Sequence record: NC_073322.1
Length of the DNA: 42,145 nt
From: Escherichia phage vB_EcoS-Ro145c2YLVW
Direction: 5' to 3' (one strand)
Below the pieces are notes generated by a model that did not search any database, was not told where the DNA came from, and was given only the letters and a program-made list of their open reading frames with translations. Made by a program: the position numbers and the translations under genes. How positions within the stretch are numbered: position 1 is the first letter of the stretch; the number at the start of each line of letters is the position of its first letter. Below, in pieces: positions 512 through 41,456 of this stretch.

Positions 512-540
512 TTGCACACTTGAATAGAATAGGCTACTAT
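512..540 (+). promoter_or_regulatory. sigma70-like promoter, conserved class A cassette (TTGCAC-17 nt-TACTAT)
   Basis: -35 TTGCAC, 17-nt spacer, -10 TACTAT; about 30 nt near-identical to cassettes at 10598-10626(-), 20344-20372(-), 41428-41456(+). Confidence 0.5.
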
Positions 541-570
541 TCATTTACACGAACGAGAGGAGAGACAGAG

Positions 571-720
571 ATGGTTACTTTGATGGTTATGGAGTTTGAA
601 AACAGCGCAGCAACTTACCGCGAGATTACTATGGTGCAGGCGTATCACCTGGCCTCAAACGGCAACTTCTACAAGGCTCAAATCATCAATGAGTTTGGGG
701 TAATTGACTATGAATTTTAA
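571..720 (+). CDS. hypothetical small protein (49 aa)
   Basis: Track ORF 520..720 starts at TTG inside the promoter; trimmed to first ATG (571) preceded by GAGGAGAGA. Confidence 0.45.
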   Translation: MVTLMVMEFENSAATYREITMVQAYHLASNGNFYKAQIINEFGVIDYEF

Positions 721-979
721 CAGTTACACCGTGACTGTTGATTTTGAGGGGCTGGAGTTGCCCCTCCCTAACAACTACCGGTACATAACTCGAGACCGTT
801 TCGGGTTTATCCAGGGGTGGCGTAACAAACCAACAGACACTGAGTTCGGGATGTCAGGAGGGGAAGAGTTGCCGATTACTTTTGGGCATCAGAGTAGCAA
901 CGAAGAACTTAAAACGGTGATTCGTAAGTATCGCCGCCGTAACACCGGGCTTATCGCAATAACAGGCGCTGCTGAATAA
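710..979 (+). CDS. hypothetical protein
   Basis: Track ORF 704..979 trimmed to ATG 710; overlaps upstream gene end (coupled). Confidence 0.5.
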   Translation: MNFNSYTVTVDFEGLELPLPNNYRYITRDRFGFIQGWRNKPTDTEFGMSGGEELPITFGHQSSNEELKTVIRKYRRRNTGLIAITGAAE

Positions 980-998
980 GCTAGAGGAGAGACAGAAG

Positions 999-1109
999 AT
1001 GAAAGATTATAGCGAAGTAACTTTAGGTGAGTTGCAGGACGAGTACGAAGATACGCTGTACCCGTTCATCTGCGACGGAGATTACAACGGCGTCTATAAC
1101 GGGGAGTGA
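999..1109 (+). CDS. hypothetical small protein (36 aa)
   Basis: ATG 999 preceded by AGAGGAGAGACAGAAG leader resembling the one at 571; stop overlaps next gene start. Confidence 0.3.
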   Translation: MKDYSEVTLGELQDEYEDTLYPFICDGDYNGVYNGE

Positions 1110-1114
1110 AGAAT

Positions 1115-1477
1115 ATGAGTAACAAAAACGAAGTATTCGAGTACCTGATTGACCAACTACGGCAACAGGTAAACAGCAATCAGTGCGAAGACCTGGCGCA
1201 CGAGGTGCAGTCACTTAAGAATCAGTTACGCGATGCGTCGGCGCTGGTGGCTGAGTTACAGAGTGAGTTGCAGCATCAGATTGACCTGGCGGCGGGTGTG
1301 TATAGATGGTCTACCGCATATTTCGACGAGAAAGGTAAAGTCACCAGGGTGGAGCGCGGGGTTAAGAGCGAGCAATCAGGTTGCCGTAAAGAAGATACAC
1401 AGGAATGCGGGCATGATTGGTACTTTTACGATAAAGGCACATCGATGATGTGCAAGAAATGCGGGCTGAAGAAATGA
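1115..1477 (+). CDS. hypothetical protein, coiled-coil with C-terminal Cys cluster
   Basis: Track ORF 1106..1477 trimmed to ATG 1115; C-terminal C...C...CxxC. Confidence 0.5.
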   Translation: MSNKNEVFEYLIDQLRQQVNSNQCEDLAHEVQSLKNQLRDASALVAELQSELQHQIDLAAGVYRWSTAYFDEKGKVTRVERGVKSEQSGCRKEDTQECGHDWYFYDKGTSMMCKKCGLKK

Positions 1478-1677
1478 CCAGCATCTTATTTATCTGGGTA
1501 TTATACGCGGGCCAGATGCAACTAGCGGCATCAGAAACGTTTTACTCGATGGAGGCGTGCCAGTCAGCGGCACGCGCCGCAGAGAACGCGCACTTCCTGT
1601 TTCAGGGAGACAAGCCCAACGATTCAGAGGTGCGCGCTATCTGCTCACCTAAGCGACTTGGTAAACAGGAGAAGTAA
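1474..1677 (+). CDS. hypothetical protein with hydrophobic N-terminus
   Basis: Track ORF 1450..1677; ATG 1474 overlaps stop of upstream gene; start choice uncertain. Confidence 0.4.
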   Translation: MTSILFIWVLYAGQMQLAASETFYSMEACQSAARAAENAHFLFQGDKPNDSEVRAICSPKRLGKQEK

Positions 1678-1679
1678 TT

Positions 1680-1862
1680 ATGGTACAGAGATATAGCTAC
1701 AACCCGATGTTCGGGTTTACTCCTGATGTTGAAGGCGGGTTAGTGCTTTACGAAGATTACGTGAAACTCGAAGCCGAGTTACAGAAATACAAAGACCAGT
1801 TCCCTGATTACGTCGAGTGCGCTAATTGTGGGTCGGTTACACATGTGGAAGGGGTGGAGTGA
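1680..1862 (+). CDS. hypothetical protein with CxxC motif
   Basis: ATG 1680 preceded by AGGAGAAG; 60 aa. Confidence 0.5.
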   Translation: MVQRYSYNPMFGFTPDVEGGLVLYEDYVKLEAELQKYKDQFPDYVECANCGSVTHVEGVE

Positions 1863-2155
1863 TGTCGTTAGCAACTGACATCCTGAAACGAAGCGGCCTC
1901 GCGCCGCTGTCACCAAGAGCGAACACCCAGATATACAAGCGCCGCCGTAACGCGCTGTTCCCTGAGATTCAGGCCAGACTCAAAGCTGTCCGCGCCTGTG
2001 GATTCCAGAACGGGAAGGCCGTGAATCTCGGTGAGTTTAAAACAAAGGAACGAGCGGCAATCGCTAATCGGCTATTTAATTACTGGAAATCGCTCGGGTA
2101 TGAAGATATTCCGACGAAACCACAGAGACGACAATACATCTGGAGACACAAATAA
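1862..2155 (+). CDS. hypothetical protein
   Basis: Track ORF 1826..2155 trimmed to ATG 1862 overlapping upstream stop. Confidence 0.5.
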   Translation: MSLATDILKRSGLAPLSPRANTQIYKRRRNALFPEIQARLKAVRACGFQNGKAVNLGEFKTKERAAIANRLFNYWKSLGYEDIPTKPQRRQYIWRHK

Positions 2156-2230
2156 ACCGTTATTAAGATAATTCCTAACCGTGCTATCCTCCAGTTACTG
2201 CATACTTAATACGCACCTGGAGGATTCATC

Positions 2231-2539
2231 TTGGATAAACTTACTGAAACAGTGACAGGCTGGCTTCTGGCTGCCGCACTCGCCGGAGGGGTAATCGGAC
2301 TACGACAACATAAGTCCGCTATTTCCGGCCCTATTGACGGATTCTGCTTTATTGCAACTGGCTTCACCTGCGCCGTATTTGGTGCGCCCCTCGCCGCTCA
2401 ATGGTTTGGAATCACGGGCGAGCGCGAAATCGCTGGCCTTGGCTTCATTATCGCTATTCTCTGGATGCCTATCTATTCCCGTCTCTCCGGTATCGTCGCT
2501 GGAGAATACATCGCACGTCGAGGAGGCACAGATGAATGA
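2231..2539 (+). CDS. putative holin
   Basis: 102-aa protein with hydrophobic helices directly upstream of endolysin; TTG start 2231 after GGAGGA. Confidence 0.6.
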   Translation: MDKLTETVTGWLLAAALAGGVIGLRQHKSAISGPIDGFCFIATGFTCAVFGAPLAAQWFGITGEREIAGLGFIIAILWMPIYSRLSGIVAGEYIARRGGTDE

Positions 2540-2804
2540 GTTATTCTGGTTCGGCGGTATGCTGGCAATCGGAGGCACATCGCTGTTTAATGTGTATCAC
2601 CCCAGCGTGGACGACGGGCTATTCGGTCGGGTGCTCTATATCCTGACCGCTATTGTCTGCGCCGCCGGATGTATCCACCTGTTACAGGGCAGTATGTCAC
2701 CTACGCTGCCTGAGACATTAATCACATTAGTTGCGCTGCGTCAGATTCGTCATGCGTGGCTGTCGTACGGAGGACATAAGCGTGTCTCGAAACATTTCAG
2801 ATAA
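2532..2804 (+). CDS. second lysis-cassette membrane protein (holin or antiholin partner)
   Basis: ATG 2532 after GAGGAGG; 91 aa with two hydrophobic segments; overlaps holin end and endolysin start. Confidence 0.5.
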   Translation: MNELFWFGGMLAIGGTSLFNVYHPSVDDGLFGRVLYILTAIVCAAGCIHLLQGSMSPTLPETLITLVALRQIRHAWLSYGGHKRVSKHFR

Positions 2805-3270
2805 TGGGCTGCATTTCACCGCCGCGTTCGAGGGGTTCCGCGGGGCCGCCTACCGCGCTACGCCGAACGAGAAGTACCTGACGATAGGCTATGGGCACTA
2901 CGGGCCGGACGTAACACCTGGCAAGACCATCACCCCCGGGCAAGGCCTCCTGCTACTTAATCGTGATATGGCTAAGGCTGCAGCTGCGGTTGATGCTGCA
3001 GCGCACCATTCGCTGACACAGGCACAGTTCGACGCTGTGTGTGACCTGGTCTATAATGCAGGTGCAGGTGTGATTGCAGCTACCACCGGCACGGGTAAGG
3101 CGCTGCGCTCGGGGGATATTGCAACGCTGCGGGCTAAGCTGGCGCTGTTTATCAACCAGAACGGCAAGCCGTTACTCGGCCTGCGGCGCCGTACTGCCGG
3201 ACGTCTTGCACTGTTCGACGGTAAACTGTGGCAGGAGGCCGAGGCTATTGGGCGCGCGGTGAAAGGTTGA
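2782..3270 (+). CDS. endolysin, phage lysozyme (GH24-like)
   Basis: FEGFRGAAY...TIGYGH matches the lysozyme catalytic Glu / TIGxGH signature; GTG start 2782 after GGAGGA. Confidence 0.8.
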   Translation: MSRNISDNGLHFTAAFEGFRGAAYRATPNEKYLTIGYGHYGPDVTPGKTITPGQGLLLLNRDMAKAAAAVDAAAHHSLTQAQFDAVCDLVYNAGAGVIAATTGTGKALRSGDIATLRAKLALFINQNGKPLLGLRRRTAGRLALFDGKLWQEAEAIGRAVKG

Positions 3271-3336
3271 CACCTGAGACTAATCCGACGATACTTAAAT
3301 CACCTCCTGTTTCATCCCTCTGCTCTCCAGTTTTAT

Positions 3337-3367
3337 CCCGGCCCTGACCCAGCCGGGATTTTTTTTT
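3337..3367 (+). terminator. rho-independent terminator
   Basis: CCCGGC-9 nt loop-GCCGGG stem followed by A(T)9 run, immediately after endolysin. Confidence 0.7.
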
Positions 3368-3389
3368 ATCTATTTTCTGTAATGACTAG

Positions 3390-3418
3390 TTGACTATTAC
3401 CTACGACCCTATTATATT
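3390..3418 (+). promoter_or_regulatory. sigma70-like promoter (TTGACT-17 nt-TATATT)
   Basis: Consensus-like hexamers at correct spacing upstream of small-ORF operon; spacer shares CTATTATA core with class B promoters. Confidence 0.45.
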
Positions 3419-3451
3419 TACTTCATCGACAACGAGAACGGAGTAGAGAAG

Positions 3452-3529
3452 ATGAGTAACTTCCATAATGAGCATGTGATGCAGTTCTATCGTCATAATC
3501 TGAAAACTAAAGGAGTGTTTGGGAAATGA
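3452..3529 (+). CDS. tiny ORF (25 aa)
   Basis: ATG after GGAGTAGAGAAG; stop overlaps next ATG (translational coupling). Confidence 0.3.
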
Positions 3530-3675
3530 AAATCACAGATATCGAAGCATTCAAAGACGCACAACTGATGGCACGCATCGCCGTCAATAACCTGAGCAGC
3601 AATATCCCGGCTGACGCGTTCTGGGCCGCCGCGATGCGGGTACTGAAAGCAGCTTATGTAGGAGAGAAGAAATGA
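3526..3675 (+). CDS. tiny ORF (49 aa)
   Basis: ATG overlapping upstream stop; AGGAG upstream; stop overlaps next ATG. Confidence 0.3.
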
Positions 3676-3842
3676 GCGAAGAAATTAGAGAACGAAGTAA
3701 AGTACTTCTACCGTTGTGGGTGGGATATAAAGTCGGCCACACCCCGTTCCCAACACGTGAGGAACTGATGAAACGTAACAGTTTCCCGGGGCCGGACAAG
3801 AACAAGTATCTCAATCGCATGTGGGGAGAGCGTAAAGAATGA
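3672..3842 (+). CDS. tiny ORF (56 aa)
   Basis: ATGA overlap with both neighbours; chains into track ORF 3839..4084. Confidence 0.3.
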   Translation: MSEEIRERSKVLLPLWVGYKVGHTPFPTREELMKRNSFPGPDKNKYLNRMWGERKE

Positions 3843-4084
3843 CTGACCGTGAATACGAAAAGATGATGGTAGAGGCGGTTAACGGCGGCGTAGACATCGG
3901 TCACGTGATGCACGTCCTGAATACTAAAATCGCGGTAGCGGAGCAAATGGTTGAGTCGCTTTATGAGACCCGCCGCGAACTGATTAACCGCTTCAACCTG
4001 AACAAGTGCGAACATGAGTTCGACTACAATCCGAAGGATATGTGCGGGCAGTGTATTAAATGCGGGGTACAGCGTCATGCCTAA
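3839..4084 (+). CDS. hypothetical protein with C-terminal zinc-ribbon (CxxC-x-CxxC)
   Basis: Track ORF; ATG start; CGQCIKCG motif. Confidence 0.5.
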   Translation: MTDREYEKMMVEAVNGGVDIGHVMHVLNTKIAVAEQMVESLYETRRELINRFNLNKCEHEFDYNPKDMCGQCIKCGVQRHA

Positions 4085-4355
4085 AATCACAATCGCATCA
4101 CTCGAGCGCCGTATTATGGTGCTTGAGTCAGAGAAACAGACGTTAGGCGGGCAACTGTCAATTAACGGTGAGTTTCAACTGGAGGTGTTTAAGCAGTTAC
4201 TCACATTAACGGCGGACATAGAAAATATTGTCGCCCTTCTAGAGTCAGGGGAATGGGGCGAGCATTGCGCAGAATCGGAGTTAGGCCAACGGCTTGAGTC
4301 GGAGATTACTAACATGCTTAGTGGTCTTGGGTGGTCGCCAGATGAAAGCACCTGA
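4077..4355 (+). CDS. hypothetical protein
   Basis: Track ORF 4014..4355 trimmed to ATG 4077 overlapping upstream stop. Confidence 0.5.
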   Translation: MPKITIASLERRIMVLESEKQTLGGQLSINGEFQLEVFKQLLTLTADIENIVALLESGEWGEHCAESELGQRLESEITNMLSGLGWSPDEST

Positions 4356-4524
4356 GCCAGTAGTTATCGATGGCGTCCTGTGGAAACCTTACTCGGTTAA
4401 CCACATCGACGCCGACGGGAAGAAGTTTAGCTTCTACATTTTTGCAATTAGCCGTGAGCACGCCGCTTGTGTGGTTGACGATATACGAGAAACGGCGTGG
4501 CTTGGTGATGAGATAGTGGGGTGA
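4342..4524 (+). CDS. hypothetical protein
   Basis: Track ORF 4294..4524 trimmed to ATG 4342. Confidence 0.45.
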   Translation: MKAPEPVVIDGVLWKPYSVNHIDADGKKFSFYIFAISREHAACVVDDIRETAWLGDEIVG

Positions 4525-4528
4525 GAGT

Positions 4529-4612
4529 ATGAGTCTTGGAGTGGTTATTGGTCTGGTCGGTCTTAGTTACTTCATTGGGTTATTGGTTGGATTTCTGTGG
4601 GGTAGATACTAA
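4529..4612 (+). CDS. small hydrophobic peptide (27 aa)
   Basis: ATG after GAGAG; single predicted membrane helix; stop overlaps ATG 4612. Confidence 0.3.
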   Translation: MSLGVVIGLVGLSYFIGLLVGFLWGRY

Positions 4613-4893
4613 TGGCACGTACCGTTGCCGCGAGATTCACTGATATTGAATCTGCGATAGAAGAAGCTGTTTATAATAAATTCTGCAACCCCTCTGCTAC
4701 GCACAACTACGGAGTTATTGTTAAATACGGCAAGTTTGAAATTAGGAGAGTTCGCACCGGTCGCCCGCACGAGTTTTTATGGACAACAGAAAGCCTAGTC
4801 CCGCGGTGCCACATTTACACAAGCGGCGCACATACGATTTTTGTAGACCTTAACAAGAAAGATATTACCGTCACTAAAGGAGAGACAAATTGA
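4612..4893 (+). CDS. hypothetical protein
   Basis: Track ORF, ATG start. Confidence 0.5.
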   Translation: MARTVAARFTDIESAIEEAVYNKFCNPSATHNYGVIVKYGKFEIRRVRTGRPHEFLWTTESLVPRCHIYTSGAHTIFVDLNKKDITVTKGETN

Positions 4894-5126
4894 TTACCAG
4901 CATTCCTAAACTGATTGAAGAGTACGGAAGTATGTCGGAGACCTGCCGACAAACCGGTATCTGCGAAATGACGATTGCCAAGTACAGCAAAGACGTGAAC
5001 TGCGAGCGCCACGTAATTTATAACAACCGTCTGATGACGCACGTTAAGACAAGCCCGGTGTTATTCACGCGCCGCGGTATCACTAAAACTGAGCAACGTA
5101 TTGCTAAAGAGGAGAGTGGGGGATGA
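4890..5126 (+). CDS. hypothetical protein, possible HTH
   Basis: TTG start after AAAGGAGAGACAA leader; coupled to neighbours. Confidence 0.45.
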   Translation: MITSIPKLIEEYGSMSETCRQTGICEMTIAKYSKDVNCERHVIYNNRLMTHVKTSPVLFTRRGITKTEQRIAKEESGG

Positions 5127-5305
5127 TTGATATTTTGAGGGCTACAAATGCTGCCGGTGACCTGGTGTTTTGGTTGGCCTTTCTCGGTGTGCTGATAAAA
5201 CAACCGACTTTGTTTAACGTTATTCCTCGCTATCTGTGGTGGCCTATGTTTTTAGGCATGGGAGTATCAGGAGTGGCTGGTATCCTTTTGTGGTTTTTCA
5301 AATGA
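5123..5305 (+). CDS. small membrane protein
   Basis: 60 aa, two hydrophobic segments; last gene before terminator. Confidence 0.5.
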   Translation: MIDILRATNAAGDLVFWLAFLGVLIKQPTLFNVIPRYLWWPMFLGMGVSGVAGILLWFFK

Positions 5306-5407
5306 GGCTACTAATCATCCCGAACGCCTGGGCTATCGCTGTAGCTAACGACCATTACGGCGGCGACGGTAAAAGAGCACCACGACACTGCCTATATAAC
5401 TGATACA

Positions 5408-5432
5408 AGCCCTCTACGGAGGGCTTTCTTTT
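5408..5432 (+). terminator. rho-independent terminator
   Basis: AGCCCTC-TACG-GAGGGCT hairpin followed by TTCTTTT. Confidence 0.65.
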
Positions 5433-5459
5433 ACATCCCGCCTAATCCCCTTATATAAT
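5431..5459 (+). promoter_or_regulatory. sigma70-like promoter (TTACAT-17 nt-TATAAT) for packaging/head operon
   Basis: Near-consensus hexamers directly after terminator and upstream of terminase small subunit. Confidence 0.5.
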
Positions 5460-5524
5460 CCCTTTAGACGCGTAGGGCGCGTCTGGTGCGCTCTGATGGT
5501 CAGACGCATATGCAAGGGGATTAT

Positions 5525-6070
5525 ATGAAGCTGAAACTCAAGCAGCCATCGCCAGAGGTGGTGCAAGCTGCGCATGAAGAAGCTGTTAGCGCGAACCGTC
5601 GCCGTAAACGGCCGCGCGGTAAACAGAGCCTTTATCAATCGTCCCGTAATTCCGCTGCGTTGTGGGACCCGGACTATTGTGACGAATTGATTCGTTTCTT
5701 CGACCGCACGTCATGGGAACTTGTGCCTACGTCCAAAGGTGACGAACGCCCGCTGATTCAGGATAAGCCACCGTCACTGGCCCGCTTTGCCTTACACATC
5801 GGCGTCACTATCCCGATTATTAAGCTGTGGCTGCGTGAGATTCCCGCATTTGCAGAAGCCTATGAAACTGCACAGGCGCTGGAAGAGGCGTACTTCACTG
5901 AGACAGGCGCGGCGGGCATCTCCGCTACGTTTGCCGCTGCGAAGCTGGGCCTTAGCAAAGAGAAACCGGTTGAATCCACCGAAAAAACGGCGCCGACTGA
6001 GATTATTTTCAGTGTTGCAGAGCCTGTAGGTAAAATCGTAACAACGAATATGGGCGAGGTAGAGGAATGA
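5525..6070 (+). CDS. terminase small subunit (putative)
   Basis: Immediately upstream of and overlapping terminase large subunit; basic N-terminus and HTH-like segment; track ORF trimmed to ATG 5525. Confidence 0.6.
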   Translation: MKLKLKQPSPEVVQAAHEEAVSANRRRKRPRGKQSLYQSSRNSAALWDPDYCDELIRFFDRTSWELVPTSKGDERPLIQDKPPSLARFALHIGVTIPIIKLWLREIPAFAEAYETAQALEEAYFTETGAAGISATFAAAKLGLSKEKPVESTEKTAPTEIIFSVAEPVGKIVTTNMGEVEE

Positions 6071-7317
6071 GTATTCAGCTATCCGCCCCTCAGGCGCTGT
6101 TTCTTAATTGCGATAACAAATACAAAGCCTACGTCGGCGGCTTCGGCAGCGGCAAAACATTTGTTGGCTGCCTAGACCTGCTTACGTTTATGCTTAAGCA
6201 TCCCGGTACACGCCTTGGCTACTTTGGACCAACATATCCGGCTATCCGAGACATCTTCTATCCGACATTCGAGGAAGCGGCTAACCTGCTAGGCCTCGAT
6301 GTGCTTGTTAAATCTGGGGACAAAGAGGTAGTGGTTACCCGTGGTAAGACAGTGCTCGGGACAGTTATCTGCCGGTCGATGGATAACCCAGGCTCGATAG
6401 TCGGCTTCAAAATCGCGGCTGCGGTCGTGGATGAGCTCGATGTATTGAGTCGCGAGAAAGCTGAGCTGGCGTGGAACAAAATCGTAGCCCGTATGCGTCT
6501 GGTCATCCCGGGCGTAATCAACCACATCTCCGTAACCACGACACCGGAAGGATTCAAGTTCGTCTACGCCAAGTTCAAAGAGAACCCGACGCCGAGCTAC
6601 TCTATGGTGCAGGCATCAACTCATGAGAACGCCAGATTCCTGCCGCCGGATTATATTAGCTCGCTGACAGAGACTTACCCGGCGCAGTTGATTAACGCAT
6701 ATCTTAACGGTGAGTTCGTCAACCTGACATCCGGCAGCGTGTATTACGCATACGACCGCCGTAAGCATCGCAGCAAAGAGACAATTCAGCCTGGCGACAC
6801 GCTGTACATCGGGCAGGACTTCAACGTTACGAAGAATGCCAGCGCCGTGTATGTGCAACGTAAAGACGGCTGGCACGCGGTAGCGGAACTGAAAGGACTG
6901 TTCGATACGCCGGACACCGTGCGCGTAATTACTGAGAAGTGGAAGTCACAAGGCCACCGCATCGTCGTTTACCCTGACGCCAGCGGCAAGAACCGCAAGA
7001 CCAACTCGGCGTCAATCTCTGATATTGCATTACTCCAGCAGGCCGGGTTCGATGTGCGGGCTAAATCAGCCAACCCGCCGGTTAAGGACCGTGTTTTAGC
7101 CGTGAATACCGCGCTGGAAAAAGGTAAGCTGTGGGTTAACGACCACTTATGCCCCGAGATAGCCAAGACGCTGGAGCAACAGGCATATGACGATAACGGA
7201 GAGCCAGCTAAAGACGGCATCATTGACCATATGGCAGATGCGCTCGGCTATCCTGTAGTTTACGAGATGCCAGTGGTTAAACCAGTAATCAACATCCCGG
7301 TGACTTTCGCACTTTAA
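6067..7317 (+). CDS. terminase large subunit
   Basis: Walker A GGFGSGKT near N-terminus, about 416 aa, followed by portal gene. Confidence 0.9.
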   Translation: MSIQLSAPQALFLNCDNKYKAYVGGFGSGKTFVGCLDLLTFMLKHPGTRLGYFGPTYPAIRDIFYPTFEEAANLLGLDVLVKSGDKEVVVTRGKTVLGTVICRSMDNPGSIVGFKIAAAVVDELDVLSREKAELAWNKIVARMRLVIPGVINHISVTTTPEGFKFVYAKFKENPTPSYSMVQASTHENARFLPPDYISSLTETYPAQLINAYLNGEFVNLTSGSVYYAYDRRKHRSKETIQPGDTLYIGQDFNVTKNASAVYVQRKDGWHAVAELKGLFDTPDTVRVITEKWKSQGHRIVVYPDASGKNRKTNSASISDIALLQQAGFDVRAKSANPPVKDRVLAVNTALEKGKLWVNDHLCPEIAKTLEQQAYDDNGEPAKDGIIDHMADALGYPVVYEMPVVKPVINIPVTFAL

Positions 7318-7329
7318 GAGGATTATTCA

Positions 7330-10321: not shown

Positions 10322-10348
10322 AAGGCCCCATTATGGGGCCTTAGTTTT
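10322..10348. terminator. bidirectional hairpin terminator
   Basis: AAGGCCCCA-TTA-TGGGGCCTT stem-loop followed by AGTTTT; sits between convergent genes. Confidence 0.6.
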
Positions 10349-10571
10349 AAACTTCCACGTCTATCACCAAATCATCAGGCATGGTTATGACTATTTTATC
10401 GTTTTCATAGAACGGGCTAAGAGGCTCATTTTCAGGCTGCAAACGTAAAGTTAGCTTTTTATCACCAAAATAATCTATGTAACGAACCCAGTACCACTCG
10501 TCGAATACCTGTACCTTTTCTCCGGGGCGTACATCTCTAGCCTTCTTTTGATTCGTAAATCTAATCGGCAT
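10347..10571 (-). CDS. hypothetical protein (74 aa), antisense moron
   Basis: ATG with AGGAGG SD; driven by class A promoter at 10598-10626; ends at the bidirectional terminator. Confidence 0.55.
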   Translation of the reverse strand: MPIRFTNQKKARDVRPGEKVQVFDEWYWVRYIDYFGDKKLTLRLQPENEPLSPFYENDKIVITMPDDLVIDVEV

Positions 10572-10597
10572 AAATACCTCCTGTTTAAGTTAACTGA

Positions 10598-10626
10598 ATA
10601 GTACCCTACTATATTGGGGTGTGCAA
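10598..10626 (-). promoter_or_regulatory. sigma70-like promoter, class A cassette
   Basis: Minus strand TTGCAC-17 nt-TACTAT; near-identical to cassettes at 512, 20344, 41428. Confidence 0.5.
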
Positions 10627-10692
10627 ACTATTTGTTTATGTATTCCAGTTATTCCGCTCAATTGTAAATGTTGGAATAAACTATTCGAATAG

Positions 10693-10721
10693 TTGACTTT
10701 TCACTGAAAATGTGCTAAGCT
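10693..10721 (+). promoter_or_regulatory. promoter with extended -10 (TTGACT-17 nt-TGcTAAGCT)
   Basis: -35 TTGACT 10693-10698, TG motif then TAAGCT 10716-10721; preceded by GGAATA-type repeats. Confidence 0.4.
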
Positions 10722-10728
10722 CCACCTG

Positions 10729-10929
10729 AGCTTGTGAAGTATGAACAAGCGACCGCGGCGCGGGCAGGTAACGGAGCGGGACGTAAGTCCTGAGTGTAGT
10801 TACGCTGACGCGTTCGGAAGGGCCATACTCTATTGCTTGTGTAAAAAGTAACGGGTTTACTGAGATTACGCCGTTTCTATGTTTAAATGATAAGGCCTAG
10901 CGCCCCGCTTTATGGCGGGGCTTTACTTA
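10729..10929 (+). ncRNA. candidate small RNA or structured leader upstream of spanins
   Basis: About 200 nt between a promoter and a GC-rich hairpin (GCCCCGC-TTTATG-GCGGGGC plus T-rich tail); no ORF over 10 codons; internal hairpin GCTTGT-N9-ACAAGC. Confidence 0.3.
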
Positions 10930-10945
10930 TCGAGAAAGGGGAAAC

Positions 10946-20121: not shown

Positions 20122-20313
20122 TCACTTCTCGTTAACATTCGAGTTGCACGCCCAGATTAAAATAAATACCCACGGCAGCAGAACCCAACCAAGAAACAGG
20201 TTAGCCATGAATATCGCCAACTTCGCTTTATGGTTACGGAAATATGCAACCAGGAAAGGCGCGAAATAAGCGAGCAGTGCAAACAGAATTAAGGAAACTG
20301 GTAAACTTGACAT
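20122..20313 (-). CDS. small membrane protein (63 aa, two predicted TM helices)
   Basis: Track ORF trimmed to ATG 20313 with AAGGGG SD; own class A promoter. Confidence 0.5.
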   Translation of the reverse strand: MSSLPVSLILFALLAYFAPFLVAYFRNHKAKLAIFMANLFLGWVLLPWVFILIWACNSNVNEK

Positions 20314-20343
20314 TTTAAACCCCTTCATTGTTGGTGTAAGTGA

Positions 20344-20372
20344 ATAGTACCCTATTATATTGGGGTGTGCAA
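20344..20372 (-). promoter_or_regulatory. sigma70-like promoter, class A cassette
   Basis: Minus strand TTGCAC-17 nt-TACTAT; 30/32 identical to cassette at 10598-10626. Confidence 0.5.
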
Positions 20373-32120: not shown

Positions 32121-32405
32121 TTAACTATAATAGTTCACTATTAGGTCGTCAACCTCTTCTTTTGTTCCTACTACAAAAACATTTGCGCCACGTTTACGAA
32201 GCCGTTTGTGCTCCCGCAACTGATGGTCCTCCGGTTCCGTGTTTTCATCCTTCTTCACCTCTACAAACCATATCACTCCTCCTGGAAGGGCGACTAACAG
32301 GTCAGGCGCTCCGTTTCTACCCTCGTACGACAGCTTACGAACGAGGCCGCCAATAGCCTCGAATCGGTCTTTTGCGTATTTCTGTATTTTGCCTTCCGGG
32401 GTCAT
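32121..32405 (-). CDS. VRR-NUC domain nuclease
   Basis: PDLLVALPGGVIWFVEVKKD matches PD-(D/E)xK VRR-NUC core; start set to ATG 32405. Confidence 0.6.
   Translation of the reverse strand: MTPEGKIQKYAKDRFEAIGGLVRKLSYEGRNGAPDLLVALPGGVIWFVEVKKDENTEPEDHQLREHKRLRKRGANVFVVGTKEEVDDLIVNYYS
32124..32152 (-). promoter_or_regulatory. sigma70-like promoter, class B (TTGACG-17 nt-TATAGT)
   Basis: Spacer contains AATAGT...CTATTATAGTT core shared with promoters at 35700 and 37970. Confidence 0.45.
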
Positions 32406-34958: not shown

Positions 34959-34974
34959 TATTTCGACCCTTTGT

Positions 34975-34997
34975 AAAAAGGCCCAATAAAGGGCCTT
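34975..34997 (-). terminator. intra-operon terminator/attenuator between SSB and polymerase
   Basis: AAGGCCC-TTTATT-GGGCCTT hairpin followed by TTTT on minus strand. Confidence 0.55.
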
Positions 34998-35016
34998 AAT
35001 TAAACTGATTCAAGTA

Positions 35017-35646: not shown

Positions 35647-35699
35647 TTGATTTCTCGCTTTTAAGTTTACTCCGGGAAGCTGCCCGGCCAGTGATTAGA

Positions 35700-35729
35700 A
35701 CTATAATAGCTAACTATTCAGGTGTCAAC
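35700..35729 (-). promoter_or_regulatory. sigma70-like promoter, class B (TTGACA-18 nt-TATAGT)
   Basis: Consensus -35; conserved AATAGT...CTATTATAGTT spacer core. Confidence 0.5.
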
Positions 35730-35732
35730 ACT

Positions 35733-35888
35733 TTATTTAAACGTTTCTTTTGTCATACGGATAATTTTCGCCGATTCGTCCCTAATTATCATGCTGAATA
35801 CCTGGTATATGACTTTGCTCCTGCCTAGCTTCGCTCCGTTTCGATGCTGTTGTATGTAGCTTTTATGCAATTCTTGAATCGTACTCAT
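35733..35888 (-). CDS. hypothetical small protein (51 aa)
   Basis: ATG overlaps exonuclease stop (ATGA); track ORF 35733..35918 trimmed. Confidence 0.35.
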   Translation of the reverse strand: MSTIQELHKSYIQQHRNGAKLGRSKVIYQVFSMIIRDESAKIIRMTKETFK

Positions 35889-37147
35889 TCCAAATCCCCC
35901 TCTGTTACTTGATTCCACTCAGGCCGTTTATCGTCTGCCGTTGCAACGCATGGTGCTCCTGGCTTACGAGTAATGAAGTCTTTCAGTTCTTCTTCCGGCA
36001 CAACTTTAACAGCTTCGGTTGGCGTCATGAGCACTTGCTTCATTAGCGCGATGCCGTATTTGCTTGCCACTTTCTCCGCGTCTTTCCACGCGCGATTACC
36101 CGGACGACCTTCTACCAGCTTGTAACCCGGCACTTTCTTGCCAGAATGCAAAGCGGCAGCCATAGCTTTCTCAACCTTGTCGATGTGCTGGCGCAACAAC
36201 GGCAACTTCTCATACTCGGCGACGAGTTGCTCAGGTGTCAGTTCCAGTGCAAAATCGTCCTCCAGTTCTTCCGCCAGCACCGCGTTAACGGTTTTTGTAC
36301 GCGCTGCGCACTGTTCTGAGAACCGACACCACTGGCAACCATCGACCGACGGCTTGAAGTCCGACGCTTTCAGGTTCTTCTTTCCACGGAAATAGGCATC
36401 AAGGGCCCGCAGCGCTCGTTTCCGTGCGAACTTAGCGAACAGTTCCAGACCTTCAACCGAGATGTCCCACTCCGACGCGCCACCAGCATACGGCTGGAAG
36501 ATGACCAGGCGAACTACTGTGATGTTATAACGTCTCTTGAGTCGGCGATAAACACCGAGAGCGTAAAGCATAAGCTGCTTGTTTTCTTTCGCTTCAACAC
36601 GATGCCGTCCTGTTTTCAGGTCGCCTATAATGAGCATGTGCCCATCGGTGTTAGACAGCTCCTGAACGGCAACGAGGTCAGCAGTTCCGAACGTCTCAAC
36701 GCCTTCATAGCCCGGATGCAATACCTCAGTAAGATTGACGCGCATTTCCAGCTTGGCGTAAGTGGCAACGTCGATAATCGCTTTGCAGTAGTCTGTGTAC
36801 TTGCGCACCTGTTCAATCATGTCAGCCGTAATCAGTACCGCACCTTTCATCGGGCTGATTAGTGCCTTAATCTGACCTTTACCCTCATCCAGCACGTAAG
36901 CACCGACTTCACGCTCCAACGGCAGCGCAGTGCCTTTGATGTACTGGTTTAGATGTACCTCAGCTATTGTGTGCATAGCTGTGCCTAATACCGCAGATTT
37001 ACCTGACGTGTTAGGGATATCTTTTTCACAGGCCAGCGATGCGGCGCAGCTTAACCACTTTTTGGCACCTGACGGCGACAGTAAGGCGTGCACATCGTTA
37101 TTGCCGCCGCGTTCTTTTAAAATCATTCCGTACCTCCCACTGGTCAA
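35885..37147 (-). CDS. PD-(D/E)xK exonuclease, RecB/Cas4-like with Cys cluster
   Basis: GDLKTG...EAKENKQLMLYAL nuclease core and C-terminal CQWCRFSEQC cysteines. Confidence 0.7.
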   Translation of the reverse strand: MTSGRYGMILKERGGNNDVHALLSPSGAKKWLSCAASLACEKDIPNTSGKSAVLGTAMHTIAEVHLNQYIKGTALPLEREVGAYVLDEGKGQIKALISPMKGAVLITADMIEQVRKYTDYCKAIIDVATYAKLEMRVNLTEVLHPGYEGVETFGTADLVAVQELSNTDGHMLIIGDLKTGRHRVEAKENKQLMLYALGVYRRLKRRYNITVVRLVIFQPYAGGASEWDISVEGLELFAKFARKRALRALDAYFRGKKNLKASDFKPSVDGCQWCRFSEQCAARTKTVNAVLAEELEDDFALELTPEQLVAEYEKLPLLRQHIDKVEKAMAAALHSGKKVPGYKLVEGRPGNRAWKDAEKVASKYGIALMKQVLMTPTEAVKVVPEEELKDFITRKPGAPCVATADDKRPEWNQVTEGDLE

Positions 37148-37394
37148 TTAAATGCCGCGTCTGGTGCTGGCAGTGCATAGCCCACCCATACATCGACTCG
37201 AAGACATAAAAGTCAGGTTTGGCGAAGGTCGTTCGCTTAATCTGCGACACGCGGCGACCTATATCTTTAGGGCGCGGTACTTTGCCTAAGTACGCCATCT
37301 CTTCCATCCGGTGCGCACCTGACGGCGCACGCAACAGCCACAACGCCTCTGTGTTATCCCGCCTGTCGATGGCGCGGTAGAGTTGGTAAATCAT
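37098..37394 (-). CDS. hypothetical protein
   Basis: Track ORF overlapping exonuclease start. Confidence 0.4.
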   Translation of the reverse strand: MIYQLYRAIDRRDNTEALWLLRAPSGAHRMEEMAYLGKVPRPKDIGRRVSQIKRTTFAKPDFYVFESMYGWAMHCQHQTRHLIDQWEVRNDFKRTRRQ

Positions 37395-37437
37395 AATTCC
37401 GAACCTCAGTTAAAGCGGCCCGAAGGCCGCAGGATAG

Positions 37438-37938
37438 TTATTCTTCTTCGAAATATTTGTTCTTGATTGCCGTCAGGCGTTCCAGATATTCAGCCAAGTC
37501 TTCGTCTTTAATCGCCGCAATCTTCATCTTCTTACCTGTGAACTCTTCCAGCAGTTCATCGGAATCGTCGCACGCGGCATCGCTCGGACCTTCATTAATT
37601 GCATCGTCGATGGCCTGAATCTGGTCACGCAGAGACTGGTAATCGACTTCTTCCTTCCCTTCTTCCGGCTCTGGCTCTGGCTGCTCTACTTTAGCTTTAC
37701 GCGGCTTGCGTTTTGGCTTCTCTTCTTCTGCTGATTTAGTGTCGACGATGTCTTCACCTTCGACCGGGATTTCTTTTGTTGCTTCTTTTGCGCACTCGTC
37801 TACCGCTTCTTTGGTATACATTACCGTCTCTACTTCTAGTGGCGCGGCAACCCGAACAACTTGTTTCGCGCTGTTCGCAGCAATCAGTTCATGTGCAACT
37901 ACGAAACGTTCCAGTAATTTTAAGAATTGGTCTAACAT
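37438..37938 (-). CDS. highly acidic protein, first gene downstream of class B promoter
   Basis: Asp/Glu-rich (EPEPEEGKEE, DDSDELLEE); GAGAGGAGAGAAACAA leader before ATG. Confidence 0.5.
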   Translation of the reverse strand: MLDQFLKLLERFVVAHELIAANSAKQVVRVAAPLEVETVMYTKEAVDECAKEATKEIPVEGEDIVDTKSAEEEKPKRKPRKAKVEQPEPEPEEGKEEVDYQSLRDQIQAIDDAINEGPSDAACDDSDELLEEFTGKKMKIAAIKDEDLAEYLERLTAIKNKYFEEE

Positions 37939-37969
37939 TTGTTTCTCTCCTCTCGTTTGGTATGGGCTA

Positions 37970-37999
37970 ACTATAATAGCTGACTATTCATGATGTCAA
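37970..37999 (-). promoter_or_regulatory. sigma70-like promoter, class B (TTGACA-18 nt-TATAGT)
   Basis: Consensus -35, conserved spacer core; divergent from XRE gene. Confidence 0.5.
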
Positions 38000-38063
38000 T
38001 GGGCTTTTCTAAAATAATTAATATGGTACTATTCACATATCAACTGACTAAGGAGTGATTAAC

Positions 38064-38279
38064 ATGCAACCATCTGAACTAGGCATCCGTGTAGAACAGC
38101 GCCGTAAAGAACTCGGCATCTCCCAGCGCCGTCTGGCTGTCCTGACGGGAGTTTCTCAGGGCGCAATTAATCAGCTTGCACTCGGAGTAACTCAGGACGT
38201 CCGCCCGGCAACGCTGTTTAAACTGGCGGAAGTGCTGGAAGTAGACGCCAAGTGGCTGGCGTTAGGTGAAGGGGCTTAA
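38064..38279 (+). CDS. XRE-family HTH transcriptional regulator
   Basis: ELGISQRRLAVLTGVSQGAINQL helix-turn-helix; AAGGAG SD before ATG 38064. Confidence 0.7.
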   Translation: MQPSELGIRVEQRRKELGISQRRLAVLTGVSQGAINQLALGVTQDVRPATLFKLAEVLEVDAKWLALGEGA

Positions 38280-38296
38280 TGCCCCTTTCTTTTTAC
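38269..38296 (+). terminator. rho-independent terminator
   Basis: AAGGGGC-TTAAT-GCCCCTT hairpin followed by TCTTTTT. Confidence 0.55.
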
Positions 38297-40537
38297 CTAT
38301 TCCAAATCTTCCTCTGTAACTTTCAGCATCTCATTCGGTTCGTATATTGTCTTCGGCCTTAATCTGTCACCTATCTTTTCGGGTATCCGGTATGTGCCGG
38401 GGGCAACTTCACCGTTAACATCACACCCGAGCATCAACTCACCGTCTTTCAGCATCTTCTCAAGATGGTGGTTGGTGATGGCGTGGTCCCCCGAGTTCGC
38501 CACTATCTGCCGTTGGGTAAAACCTCGTCCGGTGTCGTCGGACTGTTGCAGGTCTTCCAGCGCGGCGAGTATTGATTCCTTACGCCCTTCATCCTTCCCG
38601 CGTTTTACAGCATTCTTTACGTTTTCTTTACCTTCCTTTGTCAGCCCTTCTTCCCGCTCTTTCTCCTCGTCAGTTTTGAATGGCTCGAAGCCCCACGGCA
38701 TCAACACAAGCGCCTTGTGTGGTTCCGGCAGGTCGAGGTTTACGATTGTGCCGTATTCCTCCGTGCTGCCCAGGAACTCCACCGCGCGGTACTCTTTCGG
38801 CGGTGGCGCTTCACGGAACTGTACCGACTCCAGCACCATACCAACCGTCTTCTGTTGAGGCCCGTGCTTAAATTTAGAGTGGTATACGTTTATCTGACGG
38901 TCGGTTGCGCGTTCAATTGTCAGCTCCACGTCGACACCCGCATACAGCGCCCCACTGCCACGGGCTTTCTTTCCACCCTTCGGGGTATGGTGAACAACGC
39001 CCACCGCAGCTTTGGTTGCGTCGCGTACTTCTTTCAGGATGGCAATGACTTTACCCATGCCGATTGCCGTCGATGAACTGTTCTCGTCGAACTTATCAAT
39101 CGTCAGGGCCAGGGTCTGGTTGAGGGTATCGAACGCGACCATCCCAATTGGCTCGTCACCCGCGGTTTCGCGCATCAACTTAATCAGGCTTTTCAGTTTT
39201 CCGACTTCACCCATGTCGATGACATGTACATAATCTTTACCTTCCTCGCCATATTTAGCCGCGAGTGCGTCGATGCGTGTGCGTGTAGCAGCACCACCCT
39301 CACCGTCGATATAGAAATGGTGGCAACGCTGGGTATCTGCCCCTGCAAACCGGTATCCGGCGGCGCTAAGGTACATCATCCCCAGCGTATAGAACGATTT
39401 GTACGTGCCAGATTCCCCGACGATATCCCAGATACAATCCGACGGCATGTACCCTTCAACGACGAAATCAGCCTTTACCGGTTCCGGTAACTCGTCCTCC
39501 TCTGGATCCTCGTCGTCTTCCAGGTCGTCCAGGCTGCATGAAACATATTCACGTGCACCCCATCCGATGGCCTCTGCAACTTCACTGAACGGCAGCCCGG
39601 TCGCATCGCACGCGTATTTCCACACATCTTTCGGTGGCCTGCCTTCTGTCGCCCCAATGTCGGTGTCGTGAATCATGGTTACGTTCGGCGCTTCGTACCC
39701 TTCACGTGGGAAACACAGCAGGAAGTCGTCCGGGCGTGGCGTCGGGTCGCTGTAGTTTTCTGCGTGTTCTGGTGTGGCAGGCATCTTAAGGCCGCGAGGC
39801 GTCATGATGCCGCCGTACTCAAACGCCAGCGATTCAAACGCATCTGTAAACGCGGTGCGCAGTTCTTCCGGAATCTGGTAGTCAGATGCGCTGCTTACCT
39901 CGTAATCCGGGATGCCTTCCAGTAACTCGTCAGGGTCAATCAGGTCATTGCGGCGCGCCCAGATAACGGTAGAGCCGACCGGCGGCAGGTACATAGGCTG
40001 AGACAGAGTGAACCCGCTGCGGTCGGCACCCATGCCTTTGAAGAAGTGCTCCAGCAATCCGTGACGAACGCGGATGATGTCACCACCTTCAACCGGACGC
40101 CCCAGCGGCATGACGACGCGAAAGCGCGGTGACTCATCGGTATGTGATGCCGTAGTGTAAAGGCACATAGCCTGACGGCTGCGCTTAACCAGGCACACCA
40201 CTTCCTGATACTCTTCCGGCGTTGCGCTGTCGAAGTCCAGGTACGCCAGCGACGATTTACTTACAGACGCGTCACAGCGATAAAAGAAGCCTTTGCGCGC
40301 TTGCTTAAAGTCACCGGTTTCCGGGTCTTTTACGGTGCTGTGCGTAGCGTCGCACGCGGCAGTAACATAGCCAGGTGCTGTCTTCGGGTTAATTCCGTCG
40401 CGAACGGAATCGAGTGGACGGATTAACTCTTTCAGGTCGTCCAGTGTTGCCGTGTGTGTTGTTCTGACGTTTATATCCTTTTTCTCCGCCCGCGCGTTGC
40501 GACGAGACCACGAGTAGGATAAGATTGCATCGGACAT
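38297..40537 (-). CDS. DNA primase/helicase (primase-like N-terminal region plus RecA-like P-loop ATPase)
   Basis: Walker A GESGTYKS in central domain; 746 aa; canonical position in replication module. Confidence 0.65.
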   Translation of the reverse strand: MSDAILSYSWSRRNARAEKKDINVRTTHTATLDDLKELIRPLDSVRDGINPKTAPGYVTAACDATHSTVKDPETGDFKQARKGFFYRCDASVSKSSLAYLDFDSATPEEYQEVVCLVKRSRQAMCLYTTASHTDESPRFRVVMPLGRPVEGGDIIRVRHGLLEHFFKGMGADRSGFTLSQPMYLPPVGSTVIWARRNDLIDPDELLEGIPDYEVSSASDYQIPEELRTAFTDAFESLAFEYGGIMTPRGLKMPATPEHAENYSDPTPRPDDFLLCFPREGYEAPNVTMIHDTDIGATEGRPPKDVWKYACDATGLPFSEVAEAIGWGAREYVSCSLDDLEDDEDPEEDELPEPVKADFVVEGYMPSDCIWDIVGESGTYKSFYTLGMMYLSAAGYRFAGADTQRCHHFYIDGEGGAATRTRIDALAAKYGEEGKDYVHVIDMGEVGKLKSLIKLMRETAGDEPIGMVAFDTLNQTLALTIDKFDENSSSTAIGMGKVIAILKEVRDATKAAVGVVHHTPKGGKKARGSGALYAGVDVELTIERATDRQINVYHSKFKHGPQQKTVGMVLESVQFREAPPPKEYRAVEFLGSTEEYGTIVNLDLPEPHKALVLMPWGFEPFKTDEEKEREEGLTKEGKENVKNAVKRGKDEGRKESILAALEDLQQSDDTGRGFTQRQIVANSGDHAITNHHLEKMLKDGELMLGCDVNGEVAPGTYRIPEKIGDRLRPKTIYEPNEMLKVTEEDLE

Positions 40538-40595
40538 GTTGTGTTTCCTTCAGCAAGTAATTTGGCCTCGGCGTTCACCGCGTCGGGGCTTTCTT

Positions 40596-40829
40596 TTATT
40601 CCAGGTCTTCTAAAGTAGCGGTCATTCCGCGAACTTCTGCAACAGCGCTATATTTCCCGCCAACGTTTTTTACGACACCGGATTTAACCAGCACGCGTAA
40701 CGACGCTTCAATAATGGCGGAACTATAGTACTTAAAATAACTGCGGCGCAAGTCAAGAACACTACACGACCCTTTTTTACGTGTAAGCGAAACTACCGCC
40801 GTAAATACTCGTGACTGGAACTCTGTCAT
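40596..40829 (-). CDS. hypothetical protein ending in TLEDLE
   Basis: Track ORF; shares C-terminal DLE tail with primase and exonuclease. Confidence 0.45.
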   Translation of the reverse strand: MTEFQSRVFTAVVSLTRKKGSCSVLDLRRSYFKYYSSAIIEASLRVLVKSGVVKNVGGKYSAVAEVRGMTATLEDLE

Positions 40830-40996
40830 TTCACATTCTCCTTAATCCACGCTTCCACTTTATCCGGGTCAAACGTACCTGGCTGACGGCGGCCCATAAT
40901 GCGGATACAGCAATCAGGGAACTTCCCACTCTTTAACCAGTTATTCAGCGTTCGACGAGTAACCCCGATACGCTCGGCTACCTCATTCTGCGTCAT
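40826..40996 (-). CDS. small HTH DNA-binding protein
   Basis: NEVAERIGVTRRTLNNWLK helix-turn-helix; start set to ATG 40996 with GAGGG SD (track gives TTG 41029). Confidence 0.55.
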   Translation of the reverse strand: MTQNEVAERIGVTRRTLNNWLKSGKFPDCCIRIMGRRQPGTFDPDKVEAWIKENVK

Positions 40997-41028
40997 TCTC
41001 AAACCCTCATTATCAGTTAACGAAACCA

Positions 41029-41057
41029 AGTATACATTGCGAATAATGGGAAATCAA
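41029..41057 (-). promoter_or_regulatory. sigma70-like promoter (TTGATT-17 nt-TATACT) for replication operon
   Basis: Hexamers at correct spacing about 30 nt upstream of ATG 40996. Confidence 0.4.
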
Positions 41058-41336
41058 ACATAATCTCACCTATTGACATTACGGAAATCTTCGTTTAAGG
41101 TGCTTCTATATCTTAGTTACTTTGATTCCTGTTCACCTTGTAAAACCCGCCGAAAACGAGCGCACAACGCGAAGTGTTAGGCGGCAGTTTACTGAACATT
41201 CGAATTATCGTAACTTCCCTTCCTTAGTATCTCAGTTGCCCTGGGCAAGCTCTATTCTCATCGGCAGCATATCTCTTAAGTAACTGATTTTTTTAATGTG
41301 CTGTAGATTCGCAACCGTAAAAATGTAACGATTATT

Positions 41337-41364
41337 GGGCAGGCTTAAGGCCTGCCCTTTAGTT
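41337..41364 (+). terminator. rho-independent terminator in non-coding region
   Basis: GGGCAGGC-TTAA-GCCTGCCC hairpin followed by TTTAGTT. Confidence 0.55.
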
Positions 41365-41427
41365 ACCAAGTAATAAGAATAAAGGCACATCCCTACCTGA
41401 AGAATCACAACGGCAACGAATCTTTGC

Positions 41428-41456
41428 TTGCATACCCCAATATAATAGGCTACTAT
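41428..41456 (+). promoter_or_regulatory. sigma70-like promoter, class A cassette (TTGCAT-17 nt-TACTAT)
   Basis: Near-identical to cassettes at 512, 10598, 20344. Confidence 0.5.

Follow-up and report, generated by a model that had tools for sequence, protein, structure and literature searches.

The present analysis concerns a 42,145-nucleotide stretch of DNA from Escherichia phage vB_EcoS-Ro145c2YLVW (NC_073322.1; the window), in which a promoter cassette is repeated four times: A1 at 512-543 and A4 at 41428-41459 on the + strand, A2 at 10595-10626 and A3 at 20341-20372 on the - strand. Our data indicate that these cassettes are best described as host-type promoters with a built-in putative operator of the Cro family, placed across a virulent genome, and that their motif has already been catalogued. 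We propose that each cassette acts as a sigma-70-type promoter of the host, with a -35 element TTGCAC, a 17-bp spacer and a -10 element TACTAT, and that transcription would start about 7 nt downstream of the -10, at the A of TCAnTTA. The 3' part of the spacer, the -10 and the first bases downstream would together form a 14-bp dyad-symmetric operator, AATAG-N4-CTATT, and a dimeric phage DNA-binding protein sitting on it would block RNA polymerase. The identical operator would lie inside the spacers of three promoters of replication operons, and a weakened form of it before the regulator's own gene. In this way about ten promoters, early, accessory and moron, would be turned down at once by a single protein, and the likeliest binder is a predicted 71-aa protein similar to 434 Cro, encoded at 38064-38279. 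Taken as a whole, a promoter and operator circuit repressed by this Cro-like protein seems to us somewhat more probable than not.

A sequence-only reading of the window had listed four copies of a conserved promoter cassette, and all four are present, three of them near-identical. A2, A3 and A4 fit a degenerate 32-mer consensus with 0 mismatches, and 100 shuffles gave 0 matches. A looser frame, TTGC-N19-TACTAT, finds exactly A1-A4 in the window when 0.07 matches are expected. The first copy ends at 543 rather than at 545 as had been given, and its spacer is diverged, as had been said (ACTTGAATAG). All four copies have a sigma-70-type frame (TTGnnn as the -35, TAnnnT as the -10 and a fixed 17 bp between them), and this frame is kept in the orthologues. 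Similarity among the copies ends sharply at the -35, and the flanks upstream are unrelated. After each cassette a GGAG-like ribosome-binding site precedes the start codon, which lies 27 (A1), 23 (A2), 27 (A3) or 31 nt (A4) from the cassette end when the gene starts of record MG852086.2 are used. This range of 23-31 nt is close to the 24-30 nt named before, and a Shine-Dalgarno sequence and start codon are found at the same distance in every relative, even where the gene is a different one. The promoter reading thus agrees with every feature that can be tested on sequence, that is the -35, the -10, the 17-bp spacing and the ribosome-binding site and start codon 23-31 nt on, and from these we infer promoter activity. 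A1 (TTGCAC-17-TACTAT) is situated inside the rightward early operon, and A4, which has the -35 variant TTGCAT, is the first promoter of that operon. A2 is the promoter of a 74-aa moron and stands before an antisense gene between head genes, and A3 is the promoter of a leftward accessory operon.

Other functions for the conserved block were considered. Hairpin folding of the cassette gave negligible z-scores of -0.2 to -0.8 against shuffled controls, the single strand being able to form only an A/T-rich stem of five pairs, and there are no Rfam matches within the window. On these grounds a hairpin or structured RNA explanation was rejected, and the negligible hairpin energy suggests that the element acts as duplex DNA. 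We also rejected the TATAAT in the spacer as the true -10, because no conserved -35 is seen 17 bp upstream when the four copies are read. A reverse-strand promoter using TATATT inside the cassette was rejected as a general feature, since a passable -35 (TCGATA) is present in A4 only.

The phage is virulent and belongs to the genus Kagunavirus (subfamily Guernseyvirinae). Over its right half the window is 99.9% identical to record MG852086.2 (Escherichia phage vB_EcoS-Ro145clw), other Kagunavirus genomes, including fEg-Eco19, K1ind2 and Bas76, are about 84-92% identical to the window over the aligned parts, and Salmonella Jerseyviruses are about 80% identical. The non-coding share of the genome is 12.9%. 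The published description of Ro145clw makes no mention of promoters and names one small gene 'transcriptional repressor DicA', and the literature searched held no transcription-start or binding data for Guernseyvirinae. The window is 114 bp longer than MG852086.2 (42,145 against 42,031), a difference that falls within window positions 20000-42145, where the match is split in two pieces.

A motif search over the genome and its relatives confirmed the cassettes and showed them to be orthologous. In fEg-Eco19, K1ind2 and Bas76 they are syntenic and every copy has conserved flanks of its own, except that the A2 position of K1ind2 lacks a cassette. The counterpart promoters of the Jerseyviruses LSPA1 and SETP7 have AATAG-N4-CTATT unaltered, with 5' halves that drift, as in TTGCAGACACCAACAT and TTGACGTAACCAAACAT. 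Exact or near-exact dyads are likewise found at the orthologous promoters of Tsm2 and phiEap-2, and phages of E. coli, Salmonella, Serratia and Enterobacter share the dyad without change. In Tsm2 and phiEap-2, which are distant Guernseyvirinae, the helicase-primase gene is inverted and follows the gene for the 71-aa protein, a member of the XRE family, on the same strand, and the gene for a second small DNA-binding protein, HTH_17, is missing. The orthology of the cassettes means that the likeness of the four copies is due to long-standing constraint and not to recent copying.

We found that the 3' half of the cassette, comprising the 3' spacer, the -10 and TCA, is a 14-bp dyad, (K)AATAG-N4-CTATT(M). 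When all possible 5-N4-5 dyads were scanned with no prior assumption, AATAG came first in six of six Kagunavirus and Jerseyvirus genomes, with 5-8 exact copies per genome against about 0.04 expected. Only one other dyad recurs, GCCCC, which forms the stem of terminator hairpins such as AAGGCCCC...GGGGCCTT. In the window, dyads with at most one mismatch number 10 when 1.23 are expected. Nine of these are intergenic, the remaining one lies within the last bases of a gene, and all ten are in promoter-like DNA. They comprise the four cassettes, a partial copy beside the XRE gene, three leftward promoters and two degenerate sites (3390 and 10693). The recurrence of the cassette's 3' half at these six further promoter-like sites had gone unremarked. 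Within the cassettes the dyad is exact in A1 (AATAG-GCTA-CTATT, 528-541, predicted start near A547), in A3 (20343-20356, predicted start near 20337) and in A4 (41444-41457, predicted start near 41463), and has one mismatch (AGTAG) in A2 (10597-10610, predicted start near 10591).

Three near-consensus leftward promoters of replication-gene operons, which we call class B, are the three strongest sigma-70 matches found in the genome's right half, and all of them carry the dyad in their spacers in a register unlike that of the cassettes (class A). B1 (TTGACG-17-TATAGT, 32124-32152, - strand) has an exact dyad at 32129-32142 and precedes small genes and an SNF2 helicase gene. B2 (TTGACA-17-TATAGT, 35700-35728, - strand) has an exact dyad at 35705-35718 and precedes the genes for a single-stranded DNA-binding protein and DNA polymerase. 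B3 (TTGACA-18-TATAGT, 37970-37999, - strand), with an exact spacer dyad at 37975-37988, is divergent from the XRE gene. Before that gene lies a partial class A core, A5 (38018-38035, + strand), with an extended -10 (TGG-TACTAT) and an imperfect dyad, AATAT-GGTA-CTATT, at 38020-38033. In fEg-Eco19 the B3/A5 pair beside the XRE gene is present twice (40962-41020 and 41383-41441, 421 bp apart), the second copy containing N; either the regulator region is really duplicated there or the assembly is in error.

The dyad does not hold one position relative to the promoter elements. With dyad centres counted by hand from the sequences, the right arm in class A gives most of the -10 (TA-CTAT) and the centre is at about -12.5. 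In class B the dyad occupies the spacer and its final T is the first base of the -10 TATAGT, with the centre at about -18.5. The Jerseyvirus A3 (TTGCAT-17-TATTAT) is intermediate, with a centre at about -15.5. A register that is free and yet always overlaps the core promoter suits a repressor operator and not a contact for RNA polymerase or an activator, and the dyad pattern thus fits a repressor operator. We therefore favor repression over activation, as judged from the placement of the sites. The central four bases of class A dyads always end in TA, which creates TACTAT, and those of class B do not; this difference would fit firing in one direction only. The recurrence of the dyad in other promoters, in different registers and as the sole enriched dyad, supports the earlier proposal that the cassettes share a site for an additional factor.

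These observations bear on three explanations that dispense with a phage repressor. In one, there is no separate factor: a successful promoter sequence is shared by descent or recombination, and the dyad is a by-product of sequence that resembles a -10 on both strands. Consistent with this, TATAAT and TACTAT are both -10-like, the leaders of different copies are alike, as in CGAAACGAGA, and among orthologues the 5' half of the cassette is conserved no better than the flanks (TTGCGC, TTGCAG, GCCCC, ACACC, GATAT). Yet three registers of the dyad against the -35 and -10 are seen, in two promoter classes that do not share a -35 hexamer, its left arm sits where RNA polymerase makes no base-specific contact, and it is exact across two genera while adjacent spacer bases drift. 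The sharp end of similarity at the -35, with unrelated flanks upstream, also speaks against simple sharing of sequence, and we regard this explanation as rather improbable. Another, put forward in the sequence-only reading, is recent duplication of a promoter-plus-leader unit within the genome. Three copies are indeed near-identical, the A1 and A4 leaders are similar, and a relic, ACCCCAATAAAAT, lies at 494-506 upstream of A1. The copies stand, however, at the same places in fEg-Eco19, K1ind2 (A2 excepted) and Bas76, are recognisable in Jerseyvirus and have unrelated flanks, so that recent duplication is very improbable.

The third explanation comes from the literature. A 20-mer core found with PHIRE is given in three genome papers, those of VB_EcoS-Golestan, fBC-Eco01 and the Jerseyvirus SGP-C; the first describes seven 'conserved promoter sequences' and the fBC-Eco01 paper lists its seven copies as 'Phage RNAP promoters', that is, promoters for a phage-encoded RNA polymerase. 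The PHIRE motif is the same as the cassette core (TAATAGGGTACTATTCA, or tgAATAGTa-ccTATTat-T as the reverse complement), and each genome has seven copies of it in the same places. In those papers no mechanism, dyad, pair of architectures, link to a Cro-like gene or orthology is noted. Neither Ro145clw nor any of the five relatives examined in full, from Kagunavirus and Jerseyvirus, has an annotated RNA polymerase. Scanning of ten window proteins (208-766 aa, including all five of at least 696 aa) revealed no RNA-polymerase domain; three of the ten (375, 696 and 766 aa) have no Pfam match, and the two largest of these are at the positions of the relatives' tail fiber or tail protein genes. Every copy, moreover, has the sigma-70-type frame. 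We consider the reading as promoters for a phage RNA polymerase effectively refuted, and since no RNA polymerase is encoded, as judged by annotation and the ten proteins scanned, the 'phage RNAP' label of the fBC-Eco01 paper is wrong.

We then considered which protein could bind the dyad. Among the window proteins only two have a recognisable sequence-specific DNA-binding domain: the XRE protein (38064-38279, + strand), product of the phage's only XRE gene, and HTH_17. The 71-aa XRE protein matches HTH_3 at E = 2.3e-12, and its best sequence matches in the PDB are 434 Cro (E = 7.9e-6) and 434 repressor (E = 1.5e-5). Its AlphaFold2 model has five helices with a pLDDT of 85, and 2cro and 3cro are among its top Foldseek hits, with TM values of 0.77-0.85. 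Residues Gln28, Gln29, Ser30 and Gln33 of 434 repressor align with Q32, G33, A34 and Q37. In 434 complexes, Gln28 reads base 1, Gln29 bases 2-3 and Gln33 base 4 of the half-site ACAAG. The half-site AATAG is the same as ACAAG at bases 1, 4 and 5 and differs at bases 2 and 3. By analogy with the 434 contacts, bases 2 and 3 would be those read by the one residue that differs, Gln29 to Gly33, which is suggestive. As an informal cross-check, a Vibrio phage cI homologue in which Gln-Gln is kept was inspected, and ACAAC...TGT repeats precede its gene. The XRE gene also adjoins two dyads upstream, one exact (37975-37988) and one imperfect (38020-38033), both of which are mismatched in Jerseyvirus. 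A further protein of 78 aa (4890-5126) has a sub-threshold match to lambda NinH (26.2 bits, the cut-off being 29.8) and is possibly a third small DNA-binding protein.

Several observations weigh against the circuit that we favor. TTGCAC and TACTAT match only 7 of the 12 sigma-70 consensus positions, which is why the cassettes were not listed by a promoter scanner. The flanks of the dyad are consistently asymmetric, with TGAATAGT on one side and TATAATAG on the other, which a simple homodimer does not predict. The conserved C-rich 5' spacer of A2, A3 and A4 (ACCCCAATAT) is left unaccounted for by the dyad and operator. As for the XRE protein itself, its own promoter has only the imperfect dyad, and between Kagunavirus and Jerseyvirus it is 49-51% identical, with recognition helices SQGAINQ and SQSLITH, while the dyad is identical. 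PSDA-2 has an XRE homologue (41% identity) yet almost no dyads, and nothing convincing was found there as a replacement dyad. A search of a large protein database for distant XRE homologues returned only relatives at least 77% identical, their long contigs being phage-sized (about 28-45 kb); no independent lineage is therefore available for a test of co-variation.

The same promoter and operator could instead be bound by something other than the XRE protein, be it HTH_17, a different small early protein or a host factor that enterobacteria have in common. HTH_17 (56 aa, Xis/MerR-like; 40826-40996, - strand) is the alternative candidate regulator, and its gene heads the leftward helicase-primase operon. 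The HTH_17 proteins of Kagunavirus and Jerseyvirus share 84-85% identity, a closer fit to the invariant dyad than the XRE protein offers, and this counts against our preferred binder. HTH_17 occurs in 441 records, only in the two genera and in a few phages labelled Raoultella, Klebsiella, Proteus, Pseudomonas and Shigella; PSDA-2 has essentially neither HTH_17 nor dyads, and the apparent promoter of the HTH_17 gene has no dyad. Tsm2 and phiEap-2, on the other hand, have their dyads without HTH_17, and in K1ind2 the putative recognition helix of HTH_17 is changed (VTRRTLNN to VSPMTLNR) with the dyads unchanged. Proteins of the HTH_17/Xis type usually bind asymmetric or direct-repeat sites, not 14-bp palindromes, and this too was counted against HTH_17 as the binder. 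A host factor would also explain the constancy of the dyad across phages of the four host genera. To our knowledge no E. coli regulator has the half-site AATAG, and of the consensus sequences known to us, those of sigma-54, sigma-32, the marbox, CRP, ArgR, NrdR and TrpR were compared by eye and none fits. No recognisable DNA-binding domain was found when the other small early proteins were scanned. Phyletic profiling did not single out a binder: dyads and HTH_17 co-occur in six genomes, but Tsm2 and phiEap-2 break the link, and the XRE protein is found everywhere, including the dyad-poor PSDA-2, in samples that are not phylogenetically independent. On balance, sequence comparison ranks the XRE protein first as the candidate and HTH_17 or a host factor second, and we hold a binder other than the XRE protein to be unlikely.

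A further possibility assigns a function to the C-rich spacer by stacking two regulator sites. The dyad would be a global brake, bound by the 434-Cro-like protein, on essentially all early, accessory and moron promoters in a family of strictly virulent phages, and the spacer (TTGCAC-ACCCCAATAT) would be a site at which HTH_17 loads or activates, much as Q or AlpA proteins bind between the -35 and the -10. TTGCAC-ACCCCAATAT is confined to class A promoters within the Kagunavirus/Jerseyvirus clade, and this same clade holds HTH_17. The C-rich segment is missing from A1 and from the class-A-type promoter of Tsm2, and its Jerseyvirus counterparts are AACCAAACAT and AACCCAATAT. Among orthologues it varies about as much as the flanks, and its constraint is therefore moderate. 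Two stacked sites, which we think a doubtful arrangement, would give class A promoters a separate temporal programme, possibly with read-through of terminators.

The circuit with the Cro-like repressor resembles that of phage 434 in several respects. The 71-aa five-helix HTH_3 protein is similar in sequence and fold to 434 Cro. The 14-bp dyads have a 5-4-5 layout with conserved outer arms and a variable central 4 bp, as in the 14-bp operators (ACAA-N6-TTGT) of OR and OL in 434, and the sites overlap promoters, including a divergent pair beside the regulator gene. In contrast to 434, the half-site is AATAG and not ACAAG, the operator role is a prediction from sequence, and single sites are spread over about ten promoters of a virulent genome rather than forming the tripartite OR/OL clusters. 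The phage also lacks what accompanies Cro in 434 and in the lambdoid cI-cro switch: there is the 71-aa protein only, with no cI partner (C-terminal dimerisation or cleavage domain), integrase or lysogeny module, and no integrase or long repressor is annotated in MG852086.2 or was found among the window proteins scanned. Salmonella phage MB78 reportedly has a strong promoter that has no -35 consensus and interacts with a factor specific to the phage, which we mention as a lead only.

Two of the cassettes head genes that differ among relatives. The sequence-only reading had spoken of two antisense morons; A2 does drive a single 74-aa gene (10347-10571, - strand), but A3 drives a leftward operon of about five genes, among them those for a superinfection-immunity protein, a phosphoesterase and others. 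The superinfection-immunity gene (Imm_superinfect, 20122-20313, - strand) is the first after A3. The A2 slot is closed by a conserved intrinsic terminator, AAGGCCCC-ATA-ATGGGGCCTT followed by a T run (10322-10342, - strand). Alignment of this slot shows a conserved promoter and leader up to the ribosome-binding site, then unrelated sequence, with homology resuming at the conserved terminator. Four genomes have four unrelated genes of 67 to 179 codons at this place, and among metagenomic relatives at least six different genes follow A2 and at least four follow A3. Some metagenomic A2 copies have an A4-type leader. Judged by these alignments, A2 is the predicted fixed promoter of a moron slot whose gene is swapped among relatives, and the promoter-plus-leader units appear as markers of the borders of swapped gene slots.

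Morons, as described by Hendrix and colleagues, are promoter-gene-terminator units of lambdoid phages. The A2 slot is similar in that a conserved promoter and an intrinsic terminator bracket a single gene, antisense to head genes and differing among relatives. It is unlike a moron in that promoter and terminator are fixed in the backbone and only the gene is exchanged, and in that the promoter carries the phage's own predicted operator, which would wire the moron into phage regulation. PeSL cassettes of T4-type phages consist of an early promoter and a stem-loop that flank shuffled genes. Here too repeated early-promoter units border hypervariable slots and may serve as recombination joints, a role that is only putative in this phage; the cassettes differ from PeSL in having no stem-loop and far fewer copies.

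When phages are isolated for the biocontrol of E. coli and Salmonella, Guernseyvirinae, including Kagunavirus and Jerseyvirus, are among those obtained most often, yet their gene regulation is essentially unstudied. The proposed circuit is tidy but fairly ordinary phage control and offers no new kind of mechanism. If it is correct, about ten promoters and one small repressor would give a compact and testable map of early transcription, and the label of phage RNA polymerase promoters in the literature would be corrected. Accessory genes, including the superinfection-immunity gene, would be expressed from swappable slots under phage regulation, and matched promoter and operator parts would become available for engineering Guernseyvirinae.

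The two degenerate sites deserve a brief description. The promoter-like sequence TTGACT-17-TATATT at 3390-3418 (+ strand) has only a half or degenerate dyad (3385-3398) that overlaps its -35, and its -10 region, ACCCTATTATATT, mirrors the class A spacer. The other, TTGACT-17-(TGC)TAAGCT at 10693-10721 (+ strand), lies before spanin and capsid genes, and its imperfect dyad (10688-10701) also overlaps the -35. Abutting this TTGACT is an inside-out palindrome, ACTATTC-GAATAGT (10680-10693), whose half-sites face apart and which is conserved in Kagunavirus and Jerseyvirus. The site is followed by about 220 nt with no convincing gene and no Rfam match (10722-10945), and a strong terminator-like hairpin at 10902-10921 ends this stretch just before the spanin gene. 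The stretch could act as a leader dependent on read-through, or else specify a small RNA.

Around A1 and A4 there are further features. The ACCCCAATAAAAT sequence just upstream of the A1 -35 nearly repeats, in a displaced position, the spacer motif that the other cassettes have. It is conserved at the same place in other Kagunaviruses and looks like what is left of a second cassette, fused to A1 in an old rearrangement. Upstream of A4, a non-coding stretch of about 400 bp (41030-41427) separates the divergent early operons and contains a GC-rich hairpin (41337-41357) and a TTGACA at 41074. The passable promoter on the reverse strand of A4 (TCGATA-17-TATATT) is directed into this stretch, which may be a replication origin or a long leader.

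Finally, a scan of IMG/VR with the 14-mer returned mostly unrelated families. This same 14-mer, AATAGGGTACTATT, lies within a conserved element of about 35 nt, ttctctctcatctcAATAGGGTACTATTatctcat, in 12 unrelated viral contigs from metagenomes, where the element often occurs twice at a distance of about 300 bp. The match of AATAGGGTACTATT to the Kagunavirus dyad is probably coincidental, and the ttctctctcatctcAATAGGGTACTATTatctcat element looks like a repeated promoter of another phage group, possibly of the phage-RNA-polymerase type.

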